Below, one piece after another: positions 1,488 to 60,546 of a DNA stretch of 64,000 nucleotides (position 1 is its first letter; every line of letters begins with the position of its first letter). A model generated the notes under the pieces. The model did no database searches. It was not told the origin of the DNA and saw only the letters and a list, made by a program, of their open reading frames with translations. The DNA is from an uncultured Candidatus Peribacteria bacterium (GTDB lineage Bacteria > Patescibacteriota > Gracilibacteria > Peribacterales > Peribacteraceae): the NCBI GenBank assembly GCA_964513925.1, contig CAZENR010000009.1:476-64475 (forward strand), in the 5' to 3' direction. A program made the translations under genes and the position numbers.

Positions 1488-1526
1488 GAGAACACCGTTG
1501 GTTGAAGGATCGGCGGAACTACTCTT

Positions 1527-1554
1527 AGGATATGAAGTACGGAATACTTTACAA
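1527..1554 (-). promoter_or_regulatory. sigma70-like promoter TTGTAA-N16-TATCCT for 1029..1487
   Basis: Minus-strand -35 at 1549-1554 and -10 at 1527-1532. Confidence 0.4.
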
Positions 1555-1628
1555 TACTGGAAAGGATGTTCTGGTGCGTTTTTCGCGTGGGAGGTGAATT
1601 TATGTGTTTTTTGTCCGAGCTTCTATTT

Positions 1629-2016
1629 CCCACTTTTTTAAAAAAGTGGGGTAAAACGTCGCGCGGCAGGCTGGCCTGCGCTCCACGCGCCTTGTGATCC
1701 TAAATTTCTTCGAAATTTCACGGATCACTTCGGCGGGAGCACGACGGCACCAGTCAGATGCGCGACACATCCCTCCGTGTCCAACAATCGAACAGGAACG
1801 AAGGACAAGAATCTGAGCTGCTTCCTTTAGGAAAGAACTCAAGCCACCAAAGGGCGGCGCGCAATGCGCTCGGGGGCCGGAGGTCTGTCCCGCCTCAGCG
1901 GGACGTGGTGGCTCATTGCGCACGCGCTTTTGGTTCTTTTGTCGCTCGGACAAAAGAACGCCTGTATGGATGCCCATCGCCAAGATCAAGGCGGAAGCGG
2001 AGGCTTAATATTTTTT
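1629..2016 (+). ncRNA. structured non-coding element, unknown family, copy 1 (paralogue of 58714-59214)
   Basis: Lies in a 535-nt gene-free gap. Shares with copy 2 a 5' hairpin, a ~190-nt spacer and a ~120-nt core (1841-1959). Stems show compensatory changes, and a 7-nt indel breaks all reading frames. Ends at T-run 2011-2016. Confidence 0.55.
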
Positions 2017-2023
2017 AGCTTTT

Positions 2024-2761
2024 CTAAATCAGCTTTGCAATGTGAAGTAATTCCTCACAAGCAATTCTAAGGCCACCCTGCACCTGATCTATGTCCACTT
2101 TGCGAGCGTTAAATCTACGATTGTGAGCAGAGAGATCTCCCAACTTCTTAAAATCTTGCAATCCCTTTTTAGCATTTCTACTGACAGTAAATGTGGAGTC
2201 CGCCTCAAAAATTTTCAGCAAGTCTGCCAACATATAAAAATGTCCATCACTTCCCTTAATATCAATCGTCCGAGTTTTACTCTCGTATATTTCAATAATC
2301 AGGGTCTCAACAAGACGCCTGCACATAACTGCACAGCAATCATAAAGACCGGAGTCATAACTGGCATTTATCTGTAAAACTACCTTTTCTATGTAGCCCC
2401 TGGTTCCGAGAAAAAGCGCCTTAGGCAAAACACTGTCAGTTGCCTTTGGCTGTTTTGGCAAACCGAGAGTTGACTCGTATGAGATATCTAGCTCTTTTCT
2501 GCCACGAGGGTGCAACCTCCAGTCGTCTTTTTTGCCAGGCACCCGGCTAAACATTTTTTTGTTAGCAGAAAGATTGGCATTAATTCTTGAAATATTCTGC
2601 TTAGGATGACCCAAGTCCAAAAAAACTTTGCAAATCTGCGCAGCCGACATTCCCTGTGTTATATCTTCGCGACCCACATACCACAAAATAGCAGCGGCTC
2701 GGTCAGTAGCTGACAGGTTTATTTCGTCAATTGCCTTAAGGAATGAAATCAATTCAGTCAT
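2024..2761 (-). CDS. wHTH-like N-terminus plus C-terminal DUF4145/HEPN-like domain protein (Abi-like)
   Basis: 245 aa. C-terminal pattern ...CCAVMCRRLVETLIIEIY...LQDFKKLGDLSAHN... resembles the R..GN.aaH signature of DUF4145. Low-GC gene overlapping the upstream ORF by 4 nt (ATGA). Confidence 0.5.
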   Translation of the reverse strand: MTELISFLKAIDEINLSATDRAAAILWYVGREDITQGMSAAQICKVFLDLGHPKQNISRINANLSANKKMFSRVPGKKDDWRLHPRGRKELDISYESTLGLPKQPKATDSVLPKALFLGTRGYIEKVVLQINASYDSGLYDCCAVMCRRLVETLIIEIYESKTRTIDIKGSDGHFYMLADLLKIFEADSTFTVSRNAKKGLQDFKKLGDLSAHNRRFNARKVDIDQVQGGLRIACEELLHIAKLI

Positions 2762-3399
2762 TCATCATTGGAACCCCATTTTTGTGTGCAAAAAGATTTC
2801 GCAATACCTTCTGCTTGCGAAATTTTAGCCGGATTCAAAGTAATGACTCCACCTGGCCTTGCTTGTAGCCACTTAGCATTTTTCACGGCACGACTTGCAT
2901 TGCGATCTGTAATATCAATAGTGAGCAATACGTCAGCAGCATTTGCCTGCGTAGCGTTGCCAAGTCCGGCCTCCTTAAACCAAAGTGCCAATAATGTACC
3001 TGCAAGCGTCGTAGGATTGACTGCATAGGCACCGCGTTCTGGAGTACTTTTCTTCATCGCCTCCCAACAATGACGATCAAGCTGCAAAAAGGGTTTGGTC
3101 TTTGTCGGGTTGATTGCTCCAACCAGCTCAGCCTCTGTAATTCCCAATTTTTTTGCAAATGCAGTAACTGAATTTGCCGGATTCTGATTTGTCGACTGCG
3201 GAGAAAGCTTAGGTGACACTGAGACCTGATTTGCATTGTTCGGCAATGCTACAGGAAATTCTGGCGATTCTGATGTGCTATAAATCACTCCAAGAATTTG
3301 ACGCCAAAGAGCTGGGTCTTCGACTTCTGCAATGACTTTTTCTCCTGCTTTTAGGAGGACTACAAGTTTCTCCTTAGTGGATTTCTGCTTGTTAGACAT
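2758..3399 (-). CDS. hypothetical protein (213 aa), first gene of the low-GC pair
   Basis: ATG start, intact ORF, overlaps the downstream gene by ATGA. No family recognised. Confidence 0.55.
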   Translation of the reverse strand: MSNKQKSTKEKLVVLLKAGEKVIAEVEDPALWRQILGVIYSTSESPEFPVALPNNANQVSVSPKLSPQSTNQNPANSVTAFAKKLGITEAELVGAINPTKTKPFLQLDRHCWEAMKKSTPERGAYAVNPTTLAGTLLALWFKEAGLGNATQANAADVLLTIDITDRNASRAVKNAKWLQARPGGVITLNPAKISQAEGIAKSFCTQKWGSNDE

Positions 3400-3422
3400 A
3401 ATTAATAGTGGAAATTAGCTAT

Positions 3423-3451
3423 AGACTATTAAACGTACTCATCAATGTCAA
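3423..3451 (-). promoter_or_regulatory. possible promoter TTGACA-N17-TAGTCT for the low-GC pair
   Basis: Minus-strand -35 at 3446-3451 and -10 at 3423-3428, inside an AT-rich spacer. Confidence 0.3.
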
Positions 3452-3475
3452 ACATAATGTCTTATGATTTTTGAG

Positions 3476-5509
3476 TCAGATAATTTGCTCCACCGCCCTC
3501 CTCGCCCTCACAACCATTTCCGGGTTAAGGAGTGACCCAAACCGTAGCTCCGGCAGACCGCTCTGGCGGTAGCCATACAACTCTCCTGGGCCGCGCAGTT
3601 TTAGGTCAATTTCCGCCAGCATGAAGCCGGAATCATGCTGCTCCATGGCCTTCAGGCGTTCGGAACGTGCTTGCTCGGGCGTGGTGGTAAAGAGGAAGCA
3701 ATGACTTTGGTAGTCGCCGCGACCCACGCGACCCCGGAACTGGTGCAGCTGCGACAGGCCGAAGCGCTCGCTTCCTTCTATGATGATAAGCGTTGCGTTG
3801 GGTACGTCTATACCCACTTCGATTACCGATGTGGACACAAGGATATCGAAGTGCTTCTCTTTGAATGCGAGCATGACTCTATCCTTCTCTTCAGGCGTCA
3901 TTTTGCCGTGCAGCTTGGCGATTTTGCGGTGCGCGAACGCCTCCTTCAGGCGCTTCTCCTCCGCGTCCACGCTCTTTACTTCGGCCATGGTATCCTCGGT
4001 AGATTCCGTAATGAGCGGGCAGATGACAAATACCTGCCTTCCCTCCCCTATCTGCTGGTCGATAAACAACTCCACCGTCTTGCGACCCGACGGCGGTACG
4101 ACTTTGGTATGAATTGGCTTGCGGTTGCCAGGCTTCTCGGTCAACACGGAAAGATCGTGATCTCCAAAGGCCGTCAGCGCCAGCGTGCGCGGAATGGGTG
4201 TTGCCGTCATGCTGAGGAAGTGAGGACTCCCCTTGTCCTTTAGCCGCTGTCGTTGCGCCACACCGAAACGGTGCTGCTCATCGACGATGGCAAGCACGAG
4301 GTTCGCAAATGTCACCGAATCCTCTATGAGCGAATGCGTGCCGATGACAACGTCCGTCAAGCCCGCACCCAAACTACGGCGAATTGCCTGCGCCTCGGAA
4401 GCCGGGGTAGAGCCTGTAAGCAGCGCCACCGTTGGCAGGCGAATGGAGCGCAAGTGTGCGTACGCCGGGTTCGTGGTTTTTTGGACGAAGCTATGAAAGT
4501 TGAGCAGCATGCGCGTCACACCGCTCATGTGCTGCTTGGCCAGCACCTCGGTAGGAACCATGACTGCACTCTGTCCACCGTGGCGTATGGCATGCAGTAT
4601 CACCGCCACGGCAACCAGTGTTTTTCCGGAGCCGACATCGCCTTCCAGCAAGCGCGACATAGGCTTGTCTTGTTCCATGTCTTTCAAAATCTCGTAAATT
4701 GCCACCTTCTGCCCGCCGGTGGGCTTAAAGGAAAGCGAATCAAAGAATGCCTTAATCACCTCCGGATCCATGGGGATTTGCAGGCGCTTCTGCCGTTCGC
4801 CCTGCCACTCTTTTTTGCGCTCCAATGCCTCGCGCTGGATGGCGAACATCTCCTCGAACGCAAAGCGGTCTTTGGCTGCCGCAAGCTTCTCAGGTGTGGT
4901 TGGATAGTGCAGTTCGAGTATCGCTTCGCTCCTGGAAAGCAGCTGCTCAGATGCAACGACCTCCTCGGGCAGCGTCTCGCGAAACTCTGCAATTGCATCC
5001 TTCACCAGCGCAATCTTCTCACGCAGCCAGCGGCTGGTAATACCTTCGGTTTGGGGATACACCGGCACTATGCGACCGGCATGCAGCAACTGCGTTCGGT
5101 TAGACTGCTCGAACGTCGGGCTTTGTATTTGCAGTTTATAGCCACTCTCCACCACCTTTCCGGTAAGCGTAATGTCCTGCCCGTCGGTGAGCATGCGTTT
5201 AATGTGTGGCTGGTTGAACCACACCACTTGGGCTGCATTCCCTTCCTCGTCTGTAAACTGCCCCTGCACCAGCACCTTACGGGTGCGGGTACGCACCATC
5301 TTCAACTTGGATATCGTGCCGCGCAGGGTCACCTTCTGTCCAAGCGGGGCCTGGAGCAGGGTCATCATCTGGCTTAAATCCTCATGATCGCGCGGAAAAT
5401 GCAGCAAGAGCTCCTCCACGGTTTCTATATCCATGGATTGTAGCCCATCGATAAACGCATCGGTGGTCTTGAGCAGCTTGGCCGTAAGCGTATCGCGCAG
5501 GCGTGGCAC
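3476..5509 (-). CDS. recG: ATP-dependent DNA helicase RecG
   Basis: 677 aa, GTG start. Helicase motifs GDVGSGKT and DEQHRFG with a RecG-type N-terminal wedge region. Confidence 0.92.
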   Translation of the reverse strand: MPRLRDTLTAKLLKTTDAFIDGLQSMDIETVEELLLHFPRDHEDLSQMMTLLQAPLGQKVTLRGTISKLKMVRTRTRKVLVQGQFTDEEGNAAQVVWFNQPHIKRMLTDGQDITLTGKVVESGYKLQIQSPTFEQSNRTQLLHAGRIVPVYPQTEGITSRWLREKIALVKDAIAEFRETLPEEVVASEQLLSRSEAILELHYPTTPEKLAAAKDRFAFEEMFAIQREALERKKEWQGERQKRLQIPMDPEVIKAFFDSLSFKPTGGQKVAIYEILKDMEQDKPMSRLLEGDVGSGKTLVAVAVILHAIRHGGQSAVMVPTEVLAKQHMSGVTRMLLNFHSFVQKTTNPAYAHLRSIRLPTVALLTGSTPASEAQAIRRSLGAGLTDVVIGTHSLIEDSVTFANLVLAIVDEQHRFGVAQRQRLKDKGSPHFLSMTATPIPRTLALTAFGDHDLSVLTEKPGNRKPIHTKVVPPSGRKTVELFIDQQIGEGRQVFVICPLITESTEDTMAEVKSVDAEEKRLKEAFAHRKIAKLHGKMTPEEKDRVMLAFKEKHFDILVSTSVIEVGIDVPNATLIIIEGSERFGLSQLHQFRGRVGRGDYQSHCFLFTTTPEQARSERLKAMEQHDSGFMLAEIDLKLRGPGELYGYRQSGLPELRFGSLLNPEMVVRARRAVEQII

Positions 5510-10887: not shown

Positions 10888-11811
10888 CTACGGCCTCACC
10901 CACACAATCCTGTTGTCGTGCTTCCACCATGTCATCTGGCGCTTGGCATACTGACGGGTCTTTGCGGCAATGACCGGCTCTACCGAAAGCGGATCTATAC
11001 CGTCTTGTAAGGCGCGCACAAGTTCAGGATACCCATGACTCCGCATGCCGGGGCTCTGCAAAGTATACCCCTGCTTCAGCAGCTGCCGTACTTCGTCGAT
11101 CCAGCCGCCTCGTAGGAGAAGCGGGGTGCGTGCGTCAATCCGCTTTGTTAGTTCTTCTCGTTGCCAATGCATGCCGAAGATAAGCACGTCATAGCGGCAC
11201 GAAACCGTCACCAACTGTGCTGACTTCGGCTTTCCAGTCAGTCGGTGAATTTCCAGCGCACGTATCACATACGGCTTATTCTCTCGTGGAATGACTTTGG
11301 CGGACTCTGGATCTCTATCCGCAAGCTCAGCAAACAACTTCGCCCCGCCATCCTTGTCGTATGACGCCTCCAGCTCCGCCCGAAGCGCCGCATCTTTTGC
11401 AGGCAGCGGCTGCAAGCCGTCGATAATCGCACTGATGTACAGCATAGATCCACCAACTAGTAATGGAACTACATTGCGTGCGTGCATCTCCTCTATGGTC
11501 TCTGTAGCCATGCGCTGGTACCGGGCGGCCGTAATTTCCTCCGAAGGATCAACCACTGAGAAGAGATGGTGGGGTACGCCTGCGGTTTCCGCCGGAGTGA
11601 TCTTTGCAGTTCCAATGTCCATTCCTTTATACAACTGGCGTGAATCGGCGTTGATAATCTCCGCTGTATATCCAGCTGTCTTTAAGGAGAGTGCCAGCTG
11701 CACCGAAAACGCGGTCTTGCCGCTGGCCGTCGGTCCTAATACCACGACAAGCGGACGCTTGGCCGTAGCAAGGAATGCCTTGGTGGTTTGTAGTACGGAT
11801 TCCACAGGCAA
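10888..11811 (-). CDS. miaA: tRNA dimethylallyltransferase
   Basis: 307 aa. P-loop GPTASGKT and MiaA-type sequence throughout. Confidence 0.9.
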   Translation of the reverse strand: MPVESVLQTTKAFLATAKRPLVVVLGPTASGKTAFSVQLALSLKTAGYTAEIINADSRQLYKGMDIGTAKITPAETAGVPHHLFSVVDPSEEITAARYQRMATETIEEMHARNVVPLLVGGSMLYISAIIDGLQPLPAKDAALRAELEASYDKDGGAKLFAELADRDPESAKVIPRENKPYVIRALEIHRLTGKPKSAQLVTVSCRYDVLIFGMHWQREELTKRIDARTPLLLRGGWIDEVRQLLKQGYTLQSPGMRSHGYPELVRALQDGIDPLSVEPVIAAKTRQYAKRQMTWWKHDNRIVWVRP

Positions 11812-47489: not shown

Positions 47490-48926
47490 CTACTTCCCCA
47501 ACCCCACTTCCCTCTCAATAGCGCGCACTTCGCGAAGCAGCTGTGCATCTTCCTGCATGCGCTTCTCTATCTTGTCCACCGCGTGCATGACCGTGGTGTG
47601 ATCGCGGTGACTGAACGATTCGCCTAAGCGCACATAGCTCATACGCAAGTAGCGCTTGGCCAGGAACATGACGATTTGGCGGGGCACCAATACCTCGCGC
47701 ACGCGAGATTGGCCGATCATATCCGGCACCGATACCGAATAGAACTTGCTTACGCCTTCCAGCACATCTTGGAACGACACAGCTTTTACCGCGGCGGGAA
47801 TAAAGCCTACATCGTCCTTCCTTGCCTGCTCTGCAGGATCGGTAATGAGCTTATGCATGATGTCCGAAATGCTGCCCACGGTGGGCATACGGTGCTCCAG
47901 TTCGTACTGCGCTACGGCCTGCATCAGAATGCCCTCCAGTTGGCGAACGTTCTTATCGGCATGCTCGGCAATGTAGCTCAGTACCTTGGCGTCGATGAAC
48001 AGTTCGTACTCCTTTGTTTTTTCGGCAAGGATTGCCAAGCGCGTCTCGTAGTCCGGCGCGCCGACGTCGGCGATCATTCCGCGCTCAAAGCGGGATACCA
48101 GACGATCTTGCAGGATGGACAATTCCTTAGGCGGACGATCGGAACTGATAATCACCTGCTTGCGCTCCTCGATGAGCGTGTTGAAGGTGTGAAACAACTC
48201 TTCCTGCGTGCGCTCCTTGTTGGCCAAAAACTGCACATCGTCGATGATGAATACATCCACCTCGCGGTAACGGCGGCGGAACTGTTCCATCTTCTGGTGC
48301 TGAATAGCCTCGATGACCTGGTTGGTAAAGTCCTCGGTGGTGGTGTAAATGATCGACGCGTTGGCCACCGTCTTTAAGATGGCGTTGCCAACCGCTTGCA
48401 ACAGGTGGGTCTTGCCAAGACCTACACCGCCGTACAGGAACAGGGGGTTGTACTTGCCGCCGGGCTGGTTGGCTACCGCCATGCATGCCGCATGCGCCAA
48501 GCGGTTATTTGGGCCGACTACAAAGTTTTCCAACGTGTATCGCGGGTTTAAGAGCTTGCTGGTCAGACCCTCCGCCAATTTAATTTCGGCGCGGTTGGGC
48601 AGCTTGCGCGGCTTCTTCTTCTCGGGGAAGTGCTCGAGGAGCTTCAGTGTGCGCTGCACGTCATCCTTCAGGCCTACATCCACCTGGTACACGATTTGCT
48701 CAATAGATTCATCGAGCTCCTTGAGCGCATTCAGCGTCATGACGCGGTAGTGCTCCAAGTGCCAGTTCAAGAACATGGGCAGCGGCAAGCCGACCACGAC
48801 GGTGTCCTTCTCCCGACCAAGGATGGTCGTGTCTTTAAACCAGGTGATGAACTGACTGCGTTGCAGCTGCGGCTCAATTTTGCGCAGTACTTCCAGCCAA
48901 AGGACGGTGTCGATAGATGAGGTCAT
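47490..48926 (-). CDS. dnaA: chromosomal replication initiator DnaA
   Basis: 478 aa. AAA+ motif GGVGLGKTHL and DnaA domain IV at the C-terminus. Confidence 0.96.
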   Translation of the reverse strand: MTSSIDTVLWLEVLRKIEPQLQRSQFITWFKDTTILGREKDTVVVGLPLPMFLNWHLEHYRVMTLNALKELDESIEQIVYQVDVGLKDDVQRTLKLLEHFPEKKKPRKLPNRAEIKLAEGLTSKLLNPRYTLENFVVGPNNRLAHAACMAVANQPGGKYNPLFLYGGVGLGKTHLLQAVGNAILKTVANASIIYTTTEDFTNQVIEAIQHQKMEQFRRRYREVDVFIIDDVQFLANKERTQEELFHTFNTLIEERKQVIISSDRPPKELSILQDRLVSRFERGMIADVGAPDYETRLAILAEKTKEYELFIDAKVLSYIAEHADKNVRQLEGILMQAVAQYELEHRMPTVGSISDIMHKLITDPAEQARKDDVGFIPAAVKAVSFQDVLEGVSKFYSVSVPDMIGQSRVREVLVPRQIVMFLAKRYLRMSYVRLGESFSHRDHTTVMHAVDKIEKRMQEDAQLLREVRAIEREVGLGK

Positions 48927-57300: not shown

Positions 57301-58176
57301 AAGTACACCCACAGCCATACCTGGGCAATTACCACCTTCATCTCCGAGTTGCGAAAAGACCCTCAATTGCTTGCCATCTTGGACAAAGGTCTTCTGGACG
57401 ACATCGGTAACATCGGCATCGGCCAAACAGCATGGTCCATGACAATGTTCAAGTTGTTGCGCACGGAAATGATGGAATGGAAGGCAGGTGCTAAATGGGA
57501 CAATAACGTGCTAACCCGAACAATTAAAAAGATTGAGGAGCGACTGAGTAAGCTCCCGAATGGCATCAAGGAAAAAACAAAAGAAGAGGCTGTTGCCATC
57601 ATTTTGGCTGGAAAGACGTACCAAGACGGAGACGTTACTATTTCCATCTTCCAAAAGGACTTCGACGAGTACCGCAAATGGTGGAAAGAAAACTCTCAAA
57701 GCACAGTGTCTGCAGCCAAAACCGACGATGACTTCTTCCATCCAACTGGATCGGACATCCTTCTGGCGAGCAGCACGATTCTTGACGAACTTGGAACCCG
57801 TGACTCTACCGGTCGTCCAACACATCAAAGCAAGGCGCCGAAATTCTTCAGCATGGTTCGTCAGAGATACGACGAACTGAAAAAGGTAGATCCAGTTGCA
57901 AAAGAGCGGTTCCGCTCAGAAATGCAGGCAAAGTTGAAAAACTGGTTCCGCACTCGCATTTGCTCAAACGCAGCATCTGCACTGCAATTTCCGAATGAGA
58001 CAGACAGTGAGAACAAAAACGTTTTAGAAGAAATGTTGCGTCGAAGGCTCATTATGAAAGAAGATATCGTGGCTAACCTTGGCGGAACGCTTACAAAAAA
58101 AGATGAAAAGACCGGAGACACCAAACTTACTGACTTCGGAAAGTTTGTGGAAGATGCCTGGGCACGACCGCTGTAA
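54382..58176 (+). CDS. giant (1264 aa) largely helical protein with HExxH motif
   Basis: SAAHELTHFAIRKE near residue 450. Long charged or coiled segments and an EEEEEKK tract. Confidence 0.6.
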   Translation: MLRHLANARLAPKHSPLTEQRLVFLQKTGNVIPGSAPEGEARGLVELSRSPELVVRKIGRDTRSHLGFLDDAAGVKIDTLTDAEVQALATRNVNVLQGQQPELLRGNVRDAVTNVLNADAGKEGSVMELSRETRDMMDALEQLDWKHDAAIAGFYDRHEKLLRQVLALQAATTRVNKTELVLQLRYLPEVDEVLARRRERAEELAIAEQEKKLQGPAVAALIEDLATLNWQEGVQVATALSRHEKLLAQLLAPQTFQARFSNDPFAQLKWALEQLPQLQARVTRAHIAAEELQFTRLTAENDSLVDLTEALAQAPIGDEQAFERIHDEYRKTLEVIFEKNSAFIPTNFSKIDVITWAIQAIPGMAATIERKRQALHEAKEFDEPGCQYLYADEYLEQYRQMVSRDKSRQQEEIDAMLRTPPSAFQCGNTVYFNIDHPESADPIMGPRSAAHELTHFAIRKEKHANASFFADMQSALEQVGAWSDVQRVVRASFGERGAAMSVEEIIEEAAAIYVGGEKAPYTRVGNDGEASQLWEIHHMLAQAAATDGNVAHLLQAISREVDAHYDNVREKLAQSTEQSQYAAKQQREYDDFVRTNAKETEKAKKDATAAIEDEEEEEKKVTLHDVQMKISAAKQACESARASLPLVMKSLPLMSKEQQNEEQKGLDFVRNFLDENDKDLLLAEQSASALERWDLPENKGGLTAKEKEYYTKLWNFGPDEAMNKELTTKALNEYVSGVQSGIKEIGEFINRERPTASEKEDKGIWGNLKEVFFSNGKNVEWVSWSDAVKIVGIFKEAIVAKWEQGKERKAHRIADKIAQGSWLAKPIEHTLRKQARAANEKQTSEFADYLKTAGLNFDRLMGRPDGLYWRLSNINEKKAVLEYAAEKAWLYDLSPVNGADVYGIDFVSEFGPEAFSELVQHYEEGKKKESKRGYAKVNQRPDIPPMIEDLIHEMRERNIFAAHGIFQRIQEKAKYTHSHTWAITTFISELRKDPQLLAILDKGLLDDIGNIGIGQTAWSMTMFKLLRTEMMEWKAGAKWDNNVLTRTIKKIEERLSKLPNGIKEKTKEEAVAIILAGKTYQDGDVTISIFQKDFDEYRKWWKENSQSTVSAAKTDDDFFHPTGSDILLASSTILDELGTRDSTGRPTHQSKAPKFFSMVRQRYDELKKVDPVAKERFRSEMQAKLKNWFRTRICSNAASALQFPNETDSENKNVLEEMLRRRLIMKEDIVANLGGTLTKKDEKTGDTKLTDFGKFVEDAWARPL

Positions 58177-58605
58177 TTAGCCCGTACTCCCAAACCCTCC
58201 CCTGCTCTGCACTCCGTGATTCTCTACCTCCTGCCACTGCGCGCGGTCTATTTTGACAAATAACCCCTGTGCAATGCGTTCACCGCGCTCCACGGTCACG
58301 GGGGCATCTGTCACATTGCGTACCTGTACGAAAATCTCATCCTTAGGACCGTGGTAGTCCTGGTCTATAAGCCCCAAGGAATGCGGGCAAATGAGGCCTT
58401 TTTTTCGCGGCAACGATGACCTGGGGAGAATAAGCAGCGCGTACCCCTCCGGCACTTTGACGATGATATTGCCCGGAACCAAGCCCAGCTGGCCGGGCTG
58501 AATGACGGTGGTTTCGCGAGTGACGAAATCGAAGGCTGCAGCCCCGCTGGAATGGTATTCGGGCAGCGGCAACGTGGGGTCTATGCGTTGGATGGAGACG
58601 TGCAT
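58177..58605 (-). CDS. dut: dUTP diphosphatase
   Basis: Motifs AAFDF, LPRSS, GLIDQDYHG and RGGFGSTG. Start at MHVSIQRID. Confidence 0.82.
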   Translation of the reverse strand: MHVSIQRIDPTLPLPEYHSSGAAAFDFVTRETTVIQPGQLGLVPGNIIVKVPEGYALLILPRSSLPRKKGLICPHSLGLIDQDYHGPKDEIFVQVRNVTDAPVTVERGERIAQGLFVKIDRAQWQEVENHGVQSRGGFGSTG

Positions 58606-58713
58606 AAGATCAGTATATGTGAAGTTGCAGATTGATGCTGCCAAAGATTCTCTCTCGGAGAATTAGGGAACCCTGTTCGGTTCCGCATGTTCTTTTTCCC
58701 AAGCGAACATATT

Positions 58714-59214
58714 CCACTTTTTTGGCGCAAAAAAGTGGAGCAAAAAACATGCCGCTGGTGAAAGCGTTCGGCGGTTCTTTTTCGTGCATCGGGGCCTGCA
58801 AACGTGAACTCGCCGCTTCGTCCCCACGAAAGCGGCTCAAACAGGCACGTTTGCTTGCGGCCCCTCTTCACGAAGAACCGCAACGAACCCTTTCAAGGCG
58901 GCGAGAACGAAGAGACTCTGAGTTATATTTTCAAGCCACTAAAGGGTGGCGCGCAATGCGCTCGGGGGACGGAGGTCTGCCTCGGCGGTCGCAACCGCCG
59001 GGCGTGGTGGCTCATTGCGCACGCGTTTTTGGTTCTTTTGCCGCTTGGGCAAAAGAACATATGTCGTGCACAAAGAAGTGGCGGTATGTACCCTCTACCG
59101 GCAGGAGAATAGAGCGCCGCAGTGTTAAAACATCGGCGAAGGCAGGCTTTGCCTGCCTGGAGCCGCACAATCTCAGGGAGAGTCCGCGAGAGGGGTGTAA
59201 CCCCTTTCGCGAGC
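58714..59214 (+). ncRNA. structured non-coding element, unknown family, copy 2
   Basis: Lies in a 672-nt gene-free gap between dut and ftsZ. Has the same 5' hairpin (58714-58738) and core (58933-59058) as copy 1, plus nested helices at 58775-58880 and 3' hairpins. Confidence 0.55.
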
Positions 59215-59220
59215 GTAAAG

Positions 59221-59248
59221 AAAAAACCGGCCTCTTTTGGCCGGCTTT
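59221..59248 (-). terminator. intrinsic terminator of ftsZ
   Basis: Minus strand reads GCCGGCCAAAAGAGGCCGGTTTTTT. Confidence 0.8.
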
Positions 59249-59277
59249 CTCCACATTTCCCGTGTGGCTATGTTGGA

Positions 59278-60546
59278 TTATTTCCCCCCAATCTTCTTGC
59301 GCATGAAGGTGGGAACCTCCAGCTCCTCTTCGTTTAACTGCGTGCCAGAAAGCTTGATGACGGCGTCATCACCGCGGGCCGGAGCGGCATCTGTTGCAGT
59401 CTTGGCGCTCTCCTGCTTCTTGTACGAGGGCAGCTGGCGCATCAGCGGGGCTGCGGCGGCAGAAGACATGGAATCCTTCTTCTCATCGAAGCCGGTTGCG
59501 ATGACCGTGCACTTCACCTGGCCGGTGAACGCATCGTCGATCACTGCACCGAAGATGATGTTGGCCTCTGGGTCGGCAGCCTCGGTGACGATGCGTGCAG
59601 CCTCGTCCACCTCGAACATGCTCATATCGTTCCCACCCGTGATGTTGAAGAGAATACCCTTGGCACCGCTGATGGAAAGCTCGAGCAGCGGGCTGTCGAT
59701 GGCCGCGCGTGCGGCCTCTGCGGCGCGGCTGTCGCCGGTACCGTAACCGATACCCATGAGCGCGGAACCTGCATCCTGCATGACCGAACGTACGTCGGCA
59801 AAGTCGACGTTCACCAAGCCGTGCACGGTGATCAGGCTGGCAATACCCTCGATACCATGGCGCAGGATTTCATCTACGATCTGGAACGCCTCGGTCAGCG
59901 GGGTGGTCTTGTCGATGAGCGACAAAATCTTATCGTTCGGAATGGTGATGAGCGTGTCTACCTTGCCACGAAGCGCCTCCAATGCCTCCTCTGCCTGCTT
60001 GCGGCGACGCAAGCCCTCGAAGCTGAACGGCTTGGTCACAACACCCACCGTCAGCACTCCCATGGAACGTGCCAGCTCGGCAATGTACGGTGCCGCGCCG
60101 GAACCGGTACCGCCGCCAAGTCCTGCGGTGATGAACACCAGGTCGGCACCCTCAAGCGCCTTCTTGATCTCCTCAGAGCTCTCCTTCGCAGACTGCAAGC
60201 CCACGTCGGGGTTTGCACCGGCGCCCAGTCCGCGGGTGGTGCCGCGGCCGATGTTCACCTTCGTGGTAGCCGGGCTGTGGAACAGCGCCTGCGCATCGGT
60301 GTTGACGGCAATGAACTCCACGCCTCCCACCTTGCTGCTAATCATGCGGGAGACGGCGTTGCTACCGCCGCCACCAACACCCACCACGCGGATCACCGCG
60401 TTCGGGGCAATGTCGGGGCGCACTTCCTGGTATCCGCTGCTGGACGAGGTGGAACCATCGGCCTTGGCGGGTGCGGAGGGGGTAAACCCGTTACCGCCCG
60501 AAGACGACTTCGAGCCGGAGAACAGGGAGCGCAACGTGTCTGACAT
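59278..60546 (-). CDS. ftsZ: cell division protein FtsZ
   Basis: GGGTGSGAAP tubulin signature; 422 aa. Confidence 0.97.
   Translation of the reverse strand: MSDTLRSLFSGSKSSSGGNGFTPSAPAKADGSTSSSSGYQEVRPDIAPNAVIRVVGVGGGGSNAVSRMISSKVGGVEFIAVNTDAQALFHSPATTKVNIGRGTTRGLGAGANPDVGLQSAKESSEEIKKALEGADLVFITAGLGGGTGSGAAPYIAELARSMGVLTVGVVTKPFSFEGLRRRKQAEEALEALRGKVDTLITIPNDKILSLIDKTTPLTEAFQIVDEILRHGIEGIASLITVHGLVNVDFADVRSVMQDAGSALMGIGYGTGDSRAAEAARAAIDSPLLELSISGAKGILFNITGGNDMSMFEVDEAARIVTEAADPEANIIFGAVIDDAFTGQVKCTVIATGFDEKKDSMSSAAAAPLMRQLPSYKKQESAKTATDAAPARGDDAVIKLSGTQLNEEELEVPTFMRKKIGGK

Follow-up and report, generated by a model that had tools for sequence, protein, structure and literature searches.

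A modular, hairpin-rich non-coding element between dut and ftsZ in a Candidatus Peribacteria genome

Bacteria of the Candidate Phyla Radiation (CPR) have very small, tightly packed genomes. The DNA described here is a window of 64,000 nucleotides (nt), a stretch of contig CAZENR010000009.1 whose closest FtsZ matches are Candidatus Peribacteria / Peribacteraceae, within this radiation. Between the genes dut and ftsZ, the window has a gap of 672 nt (58606-59277), the bulk of which is a structured, non-coding and hairpin-rich element. Another copy lies between recG and the gene for a protein of 152 amino acids (aa). The latter is called copy 1 below, and the one beside dut copy 2.

A sequence-only reading of the window had called the dut-ftsZ gap unusually long, and had placed in it the second copy of a structured element. 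Both statements hold. Most gaps in the window are shorter than 150 nt, and on a crude gene map the gaps 58606-59277 and 1488-2023 are the two largest. The second copy is borne out by a match in the core, by a palindrome and by folding. Positions 58931-59058 (128 nt) align with 1839-1959 at 83.6% identity (E = 1e-34), which also makes copy 1 real. Copy 1 scores 131 bits with a covariance model of domain D1 (R1) and 153 bits with a model of core E1 (R2). The palindrome CCACTTTTTT(N)AAAAAAGTGG is found in both gaps, with two matches in the window against none in 100 shuffles. The finding is real, and goes beyond a chance cluster of hairpins.

A member of this family consists of an A/T palindrome as its head, a long hairpin D that is either D1 or D2, an optional core E1 of ~130 nt, and terminal hairpins. 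Both window copies share one fold, made up of a closing helix between the left segment and the 3' arm, the AT hairpin, domain D, core E1 and the terminal hairpin. Domain D is D1 in copy 1 and D2 in copy 2, and BLAST is unable to align the two.

Contents of the gap

The sequence-only reading had treated the 672 nt as one element. They are in fact a composite, in which the element proper is accompanied by the putative dut promoter and a truncated, unrelated hairpin on one side, and by another conserved hairpin and the ftsZ terminator on the other. The dut start does bound the gap as had been stated, but the ftsZ terminator, given as the other edge, sits within the 672 nt. The repeated unit, together with an associated left segment, makes up most of the gap. 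All helices that had been listed are present, with the coordinates of the outer helix about 2 nt off. The positions of these parts are in Table 1. Sequences of relatives carry L numbers, as in L144.

Nearest to dut, segment A has lost its 3' arm, which is cut off at the start of the main element. It matches L082 2371-2433 at 79%. There it is a complete hairpin of 18 bp beside the ftsZ terminator, at the opposite end of the dut-ftsZ gap.

The left segment forms a closing helix in the minimum free energy (MFE) fold. It could be such a helix, or one half of a pair resembling terminal inverted repeats. Copy 1 has an equivalent pair of 17 bp (1605-1621 / 1944-1960), with two compensatory differences relative to copy 2. 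The closing helix is absent in L144, where the left segment has diverged, and its left arm falls outside the unit delimited by contig ends (see below).

The AT head is present in every family member, namely both window copies, L081, L082, L139/L140, L143 and L144. Its loop varies from 0 to 5 nt, which favours a hairpin over a protein site of fixed spacing. Known palindromic sites (parS, NrdR-box, CIRCE, attC and dif) were rejected by comparison with their consensus sequences.

D2 has a 92% identical copy in L144. Within core E1, the helix GCGCAATG/CATTGCGC encloses a hypervariable inner hairpin, which is a different hairpin in each copy. A GGA in the loop of the E1 hairpin brought a CsrA sponge to mind; this was dropped, as L144 no longer has the GGA. 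The 3' arm of the terminal hairpin has an alternative partner in 58687-58705, and the hairpin shows one compensatory change from C-G to U-A relative to copy 1 and L144. Beyond it, the fold of 59061-59217 has z = -3.7.

The hairpin at 59187-59213 is outside the repeated unit and resident at the locus. L138, with 99% FtsZ identity, has CACGAAAGGGAAAC-TCC-GTTTCCCTCTCGTG in its place, with changes in both arms that leave the stem intact. The ftsZ terminator next to it is kept at 87-94% in L081, L082, L083, L138 and L139, and it was the terminator's stem and U-run that were aligned in weak Rfam matches.

An open reading frame (ORF) at 58632..59306 had been described as Arg-rich and not protein-like. 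It exists and it fits this description, with 12.5% Arg, 4% Cys and 2.7% Trp, compared to 6.2%, 0.5% and 1.0% in confident genes of the window. Neither this nor any other ORF in the gap has a Pfam match at E up to 10. A protein-coding reading is ruled out by composition, by the lack of a Pfam match, and by a 7-nt indel between copies 1 and 2 within E1 that breaks the frame.

Table 1. Coordinates of the two gaps, their parts and some neighbouring features. Positions are those of the window unless an L number is given.
Feature	Position	Strand	Remarks
dut	58177-58605	minus	Pfam dUTPase; ATG at 58605
Putative dut promoter region	58606..58642	minus	from reading the sequence; outside the element
TAnnnT box, 6 nt and ATG at dut	58606-58625; L082 ~2828-2845; L083 ~11470-11488; L139 ~1915-1932; L085 ~2860-2877	minus (window)
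Segment A	58643..58685	.	remnant of a separate hairpin module; GGAACC 58667-58672 / GGTTCC 58679-58684
Left segment	58687..58705	+	ATGTTCTTTTTCCCAAGCG; complementary to 59042-59060 (inverted repeat I1, 19 nt, 95% complementary)
Repeated unit	~58713-59172	+
AT palindrome/hairpin head	58713..58739	+	TCCACTTTTTTG-GCG-CAAAAAAGTGGA; left edge of repeated unit
Domain D2	58751..58902	+	long imperfect hairpin; nested helices and conserved internal loop AACTC / TCAAACAGG; MFE fold
Outer helix of D2	GGTTCT 58773-58778 and TCGTG 58782-58786 / CACGAAGAACC 58869-58879	+
Helix H4 of D2	GGGGCC 58791-58796 / GGCCCC 58859-58864	+
Helix H5 of D2	GCAAACGTG 58798-58806 / CACGTTTGC 58847-58855	+
Inner helix of D2	GCCGCTT 58812-58818 / AAGCGGC 58831-58837	+
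Core E1	58931..59031	+	conserved TCAAGCCAC, then long hairpin 58940-59031
Terminal hairpin	59032..59060	+	GTTCTTTTGCC-GCTTG-GGCAAAAGAAC (+AT); inverted repeat I4
3' extension of repeated unit	59061..59172	+	hairpins including the next row
3' hairpin	GGCAGGC 59142-59148 / GCCTGCC 59152-59158	+	loop TTT
3' hairpin beside ftsZ terminator	59187..59213	+	CGCGAGAGGGGT-GTA-ACCCCTTTCGCG; arms CGCGAGAGGGG 59187-59197 / CCCCTTTCGCG 59203-59213; locus-resident, outside repeated unit
ftsZ intrinsic terminator	59221..59246 (approximate)	minus	GCCGGCC-AAAAGA-GGCCGG-TTTTTT; from reading the sequence
ftsZ	59278-60546	minus	Pfam Tubulin/FtsZ_C; stop at 59278
Gap with copy 1	1488-2023		at the recG-152aa locus
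Copy 1	1603..1962	+	left segment 1605-1621; AT palindrome 1629-1650; D1 1655-1769; E1 and terminal hairpin 1834-1962
Second hairpin-repeat family	L083 11347-11464 and 16276-16395; L085 ~2740-2840; L143 ~2550-2600

Maintained helices and strand polarity

The fold of 58680-59070 reaches -184 kcal/mol, with z = -8.9 on the plus strand and -8.3 on the minus strand. The dut-ftsZ gap is the most structured of the 17 gaps in the window (z = -7.9 plus, -9.3 minus). It shares only with the gap of copy 1 (-3.2/-4.8) the property of being structured on both strands. The other gaps have z between about -2 and +2, apart from a gap of 171 nt at 858-1028, with z = -4.2 on the minus strand and +0.6 on the plus strand.

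The nested helices also have comparative support, in that homologues with different helix sequences have the same architecture. In domain D the helices covary, kept by compensatory substitutions. The three full D1 sequences share 41 pairs, which are 97.5% paired, and 7 pairs have changed on both sides. Of 500 column shuffles, only 1 attains this number of double changes; slid controls show 1-2 such pairs.

Along the long arm, D2 is a homologue of D1, and helices H4 and H5 are completely paired in every sequence. Copy 2 has GGGGCC/GGCCCC as H4 and GCAAACGTG/CACGTTTGC as H5. The corresponding helices are ACAGCCC/GGGCTGT and AAAAGTCAG/CTGACTTTT in L139, and GTGATCC/GGATCAC and AAATTTC/GAAATTT in copy 1. 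Between these helices there is always a single U on the 5' side and a bulge of 3-5 nt on the 3' side. D2 has H4/H5, the junction nucleotides and the apex loop in common with the D1 of L139, copy 1 and L082. Copy 2, L144 and L139 further share an apex module, in which the loop RACTC / TCAAACAGG surrounds a hairpin of differing sequence. For E1, 100% of cells pair, with too little variation for significance, and over blocks of 21-23 nt the three copies agree exactly.

The sequence-only reading assigned the element to the plus strand, and the pairs that are not Watson-Crick support this, as they are mostly G·U on that strand. Copy 2 has 8 G·U on plus versus 1 on minus. In D1, one G·U is kept in all three sequences and four pairs are G·U in one sequence, with no A·C. 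All three one-sided changes in E1 go from G·U to G-C on plus, and the lone non-Watson-Crick position of the hairpin at 59187-59213 reads G·U on plus and A·C on minus, in the window as well as in L138. Copy 1 by itself is ambiguous. Because of this concentration of G·U pairs in copy 2, D1, E1 and the hairpin, the plus strand of the window is the constrained strand, which fits either RNA or single-stranded DNA of plus polarity.

Relatives, copies and contexts

ftsZ and dut are neighbours among the relatives too, and what lies between them is variable. At 85-87% FtsZ identity, L084 and L091 have a gap of 35-40 nt. L085 (86%) has ~190 nt of other hairpins, and both L086 (86%) and L141 (90%) have an inserted ORF, not typed to a family in L086 and matching PF05635 in L141. 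L083 (91%) lacks the element and has a different repeat of 122 nt, with a second copy 5 kb away in its genome. Closer by, L139 and L140 (92%) have the AT head and D1, sense to ftsZ and without E1. The same head and D1, again sense to ftsZ, are seen in L081 (97%), where the contig stops inside D1. L082 (93%) is antisense and has the AT head, an 80-nt insert, D1 and an unrelated block, but no E1. E1 is seen in none of these last four relatives.

From these comparisons the element belongs to one subclade, in which neither orientation nor module content is fixed. Relatives without it, which the sequence-only reading had named as grounds for refutation, do occur at this locus (L083, L084, L091, L141 and apparently L086), and they speak against a resident structured RNA of the dut/ftsZ neighbourhood. 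The element had also been described as antisense to both flanking genes. This is true in the window, but it is not a conserved property, because relatives carry other modules in either orientation: it is sense in L081, L139 and L140. Over all relatives, the combinations are D1 with E1, D2 with E1, D1 alone, D1 with another module and AT head with another module, in both orientations, and presence itself varies. Copies at different loci exchange modules, and orientation flips between close relatives.

The site between the ftsZ terminator and the dut promoter tolerates and collects insertions in this clade. The inserted ORF of L141 (2149-2607) encodes a 23S_rRNA_IVP family protein, and this relative also has a PhdYeFM/ParE toxin-antitoxin pair just past dut. 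The inserted ORF of L086 (~3400-3790) is flanked by direct repeats of the AACCATTT type. A second, unrelated family of hairpin repeats, with a motif of the type CCTCACCCC...GGGGTGAGG, occupies the same intergenic sites in relatives (Table 1), and in L143 it directly adjoins the AT palindrome. The ~80-nt insert of L082, TCCCCAAGG...GCTTGGGCCTG, lies between AT palindrome and D1 (2725-2795, reverse strand). It carries CCCAAGC/GCTTGGG and GCTCGGAC motifs that resemble the terminal hairpins of the window copies. This suggests a nested insertion of a mini-element at the palindrome.

At the dut end of the gap, the -10-like TATACT (58613-58618, minus) ends exactly 6 nt ahead of the dut ATG, a leaderless-type layout. 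L082, L083, L085 and L139 also have a TAnnnT box followed by 6 nt and ATG; with the window included, the boxes are TATACT, TACAAT, TACACT, TATAGT and TATGCT. This spacing suggests that the dut mRNA may be leaderless.

The recG locus tells a similar story. The flanks of L144 (nt identity 96% in recG and 97.5% in the genes downstream) place it in the same species. A full element lies there between recG and the 152-aa gene, and it is 92% identical to copy 2 of the window, not to the copy at the same locus. It has an AT head with a GGCGC loop, D2 and E1, followed by a terminal hairpin like that of copy 1, and its left segment has diverged. The recG terminator comes right after the terminal hairpin. 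L143, at 81% nt identity, has only a sequence resembling the left segment and the AT head, both inverted, and then another module.

Modules are thus mobile between loci at species-level divergence. The exchange of D1 and D2 most likely took place by gene conversion, because the flanking synteny is unchanged. A large chromosomal inversion between the two copies is ruled out as its cause by the unchanged flanking synteny of L144 and L081.

Next to copy 1, at 2024-3399, the window has two minus-strand ORFs of 245 and 213 aa, with a GC content of 0.42-0.45 against ~0.55. They have no Pfam or NCBIfam match and one weak PtuB-like match in PADLOC (E = 0.004). They are missing in L144, where the element directly follows recG, and the insertion junction of this low-GC island is the end of the terminal hairpin of copy 1. 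On the other side, the 152-aa gene and its upstream region (~850-1650 versus L144 2247-3046) have 81.6% identity, compared to 96-97.5% for flanking genes. This tract beside the element is locally divergent, possibly by import through recombination. Further along, dnaA is found at 47490-48926, between the two copies and ~10 kb from copy 2. Cumulative GC skew has its minimum near 52-56 kb. This does not place the origin of replication precisely, but the origin is probably inside the window.

How many copies are there? In independent short-read samples, contigs stop at identical positions. Logan contigs from three samples that come from the dut side stop at 58742, which is 30 nt into shared sequence. 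From the ftsZ side, contigs from two samples stop at 59142, and contigs from the side of the 152-aa gene stop at 1653. We take these contigs to have been built with k = 31. If so, identical stops mean a branch in the assembly graph, at a place where another context has the same 30 nt. The shared unit would then run from 58713 to ~59171, and that of copy 1 from ~1624 onward. The left edge is the first base of the AT hairpin stem, and identity between copy 2 and L144 begins there as well. Because the two copies of the window differ over these 30-mers, further copies or variants should exist in the same populations, and we infer at least one more context for each element type.

The E1 model matched window 58926-59062, window 1834-1963 and L144 1926-2063, and nothing else in 245 kb of related DNA. 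Together, the D1 and E1 models found no further copy in the window or in these related loci.

Wider searches were negative too. At the gathering threshold, Rfam finds only three tRNAs in the window; below it (E up to 10, 58100-59400) the best matches are terminator look-alikes with E >1, and nothing relevant. BLAST against phages and plasmids gave no match to the element, and six-frame translations had no match at E up to 10 in a database of 5.8 billion proteins. The core 18-mer has 71 loci in 185,579 species genomes, all of them chance matches in GC-rich genomes. Scans of viral contigs with core 18- and 19-mers and a D1 17-mer found no true match, and a loop-motif pattern gave >120 chance matches there without extended similarity, being too unspecific. 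A metagenome scan based on FtsZ provided synteny information and no further element. No tRNA, tmRNA or tandem repeat was found in the element, and a consensus scan showed no sigma-70-like promoter in either gap. As for terminators, there were only two weak terminator-like sites.

The AT palindrome did have 19 matches in viral contigs, from unrelated low-GC viruses, with similarity limited to the palindrome itself. These contigs (L111-L129, IMG/VR, GC 0.26-0.48, including metagenome-assembled genomes of giant viruses) carry CCACTTTTTT(N)AAAAAAGTGG, in about half of the cases followed by AGCAAAA, as in copy 2 and L139. There are several palindromes per contig, often beside iteron-like tandem repeats (L125, L126, L128).

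Repeat family or RNA gene

The bulk of the gap is probably a copy of a repeat family of this Peribacteraceae genus, lineage-specific, multi-copy, modular, non-coding and hairpin-rich, in the manner of BOX, ERIC and BIME. The reasons for preferring a repeat are the mosaicism, the polymorphism in presence and orientation, the exchange of modules, the extra contexts, the insertion-prone gap and the lack of transcription signals. The covariation, the conserved internal loop and the G·U pattern on one strand are the reasons to think that selection would act on a single-stranded form of plus polarity.

Such an element would be an interspersed repeat similar in kind to BOX, ERIC, BIME and MITEs (miniature inverted-repeat transposable elements), and would persist by being selfish or nearly neutral. 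It may be spread and homogenised by recombination or by an enzyme acting in trans. In the simplest case the single-stranded form would be a transcript, folded into stable stem-loops one after another, with the conserved RACUC/UCAAACAGG loop as a possible binding site. The element would have no conserved role in regulating dut or ftsZ, and local effects, for example insulation or stabilisation of transcripts, would be incidental.

Several observations weigh against this. In the 245 kb of related DNA, elements are found at only two loci (ftsZ-dut and recG-152aa), so that actual transposition to new sites is hypothetical, and the estimate of copy number depends on k = 31 for the Logan contigs. 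No target-site duplication is seen, as there is no direct repeat at 58687/59060, at 58713/59172 or around copy 1; there was no clean empty site to compare with. The inverted repeat (19 nt in copy 2, 17 nt in copy 1) is missing in L144 and in short forms such as L139, and that of copy 2 lies partly outside the unit delimited by contig ends. The 64-kb window has no transposase, reverse transcriptase, integrase or Y1 enzyme, and no recombinase is encoded near the element. The GC content of the element equals that of the genome, unlike that of the classical AT-rich MITEs. Finally, a conserved internal loop with covarying helices on its sides is also to be expected of a functional RNA.

That last point leads to the most serious rival, a family of genes for a trans-acting, structured non-coding RNA (ncRNA) of ~375-460 nt, on the plus strand of two or more paralogous loci, with the D loop as a platform for binding protein or RNA. 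We regard this as unlikely, if far from negligible. The same modest weight goes to its fuller form, a previously undescribed class of large multi-domain RNAs specific to Peribacteria. Its few paralogous loci would exchange domains by gene conversion, the D loop (RACUC / UCAAACAGG) would face a protein or nucleic-acid partner, and the RNA rather than a DNA repeat would be under selection. The covariation of D1, the architecture and loop sequences conserved between the very different D1 and D2, the G·U bias, the identical blocks of E1, the absence of a coding signal and the occupation of the same two loci in several species would all suit such genes. Such genes are harder to square with a plus-strand unit that lacks any promoter- or terminator-like signal, that flips relative to its flanks, and for which Rfam has no matching family even with E allowed up to 10. 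L139 and L082 do without E1, D1 and D2 swap within a single species, relatives at an FtsZ identity of 91% or less lack the element, and the same samples contain extra contexts.

A non-autonomous derivative of a single-strand-DNA transposon of the insertion sequence (IS) type IS200/IS605 would have subterminal hairpins, and E1 as a leftover 3' region resembling omega-RNA. This is improbable. Such elements require neither a terminal inverted repeat nor a target-site duplication, and the family studied here has no universal form of the former and no trace of the latter. Strand-specific hairpins do lie at or near both inferred ends (58713-58739 and 59142-59158, the latter ~13 nt from the edge), G·T pairs are tolerated, and a structured block of ~130 nt is found near the right end. 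But the two end hairpins are unlike each other, and no gene or remnant of TnpA (the Y1 transposase) or TnpB was found: Pfam has nothing in the gap ORFs with E as high as 10, and the neighbouring genes encode neither protein. The motif 'AARNAL', which resembles RuvC-III, was considered as a TnpB remnant and dropped for lack of Pfam support. Reading the sequence 5' of the element in seven contexts reveals no conserved target motif. A lagging-strand bias is unlikely as well, because the window copies are on the same strand despite having dnaA between them, and relatives carry both orientations.

The position between dut and ftsZ invites the idea of a cis-regulatory or antisense RNA for one of these genes, such as a leader, an attenuator or a stabiliser in the 3' untranslated region, and the stable hairpin beside the ftsZ terminator is indeed kept with compensatory changes in L138. 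The comparison of synteny nevertheless appears largely to refute this reading, to which we give very little credence. In the window and in four relatives, dut has a -10 box to itself, 6 nt ahead of its ATG, and the element lies upstream of that box. Relatives lack the element or have it inverted, it also occurs at an unrelated locus, and the constrained strand, antisense to both genes here, is sense in L139 and L081.

Even less is to be said for a retron-like locus or a type I toxin-antitoxin locus of the hok kind. It would be read from the 5'-3' fold-back helix that encloses hairpins: both window copies do have a closing helix of 17-19 bp, and the long hairpin resembles an msd stem. That helix is absent in L144, however, and there is no reverse transcriptase beside either copy, the neighbours being dut, ftsZ, a membrane-like protein of 152 aa and two low-GC ORFs without RVT domains. 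A hok-like gene would need a small ORF, and none is conserved: between copies, the 7-nt indel shifts the frames across E1, and the sequences of D1 and D2 are not related.

If it is indeed a repeat, what does it mean to find one here? Even a genome of ~1.2 Mb then carries recombining non-coding modules that are constrained in structure, and ftsZ-dut and recG-152aa are marked as hotspots for the entry of foreign DNA. The element also accounts for the breaks in short-read assemblies at these points. As a selfish repeat it would be a useful marker of recombination and strain variation. If instead it proves to be an RNA that has a partner, a large class of ncRNA would become known from a phylum without cultured representatives. 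Searches of the literature turned up no account, for CPR bacteria, of structured repeats that are interspersed or of structured RNAs specific to a lineage.

Large structured bacterial ncRNAs of unknown function, such as GOLLD, ROOL, HEARO and OLE, are often linked to mobile DNA. Like these, the element is several hundred nt long and multi-domain, has helices supported by covariation, is narrow in its phylogenetic range and is found in variable regions of the genome. Unlike them, it has no Rfam match, no stable orientation or module content and no defined transcription unit.

With MITEs it shares a length of 375-460 nt, a high degree of base pairing, an inverted repeat of 17-19 nt in two copies, presence in multiple copies and the lack of coding capacity. 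But its terminal inverted repeats are not universal and are not at the inferred ends of the unit, target-site duplications are lacking, and the window contains neither a cognate IS nor a transposase. Module swapping dominates, rather than clean insertion and excision.

Small interspersed repeats have been reviewed as having terminal inverted repeats, tight secondary structure, modularity, transcription and effects on neighbouring transcripts, and include pneumococcal BOX (modular, boxA-boxB(n)-boxC), ERIC, Correia/NIME and BIME (PMC3049150). The Peribacteria element is likewise intergenic, non-coding and found in both orientations. As in BOX, copies differ in which modules they have and how many, and, with ends able to pair, the whole unit folds very stably. 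Presence varies between close relatives, and chance ORFs occur on both strands, as is typical of such repeats.

There are differences too. There is no sequence similarity to BOX-type repeats, the modules are much larger (hairpins of 130-160 nt) and GC-neutral instead of AT-rich, no target-site duplication was found, and the observed copy number is low, at two in 64 kb. The conserved asymmetric internal loop with covarying helices on its sides is also unlike BOX. The host differs as well, being a CPR bacterium whose genome measures ~1.2 Mb (PMC4736985). The element fits best as a new form, specific to its lineage, of a known kind of bacterial genome component, and it stands out for its streamlined CPR host and its clearly maintained helices.

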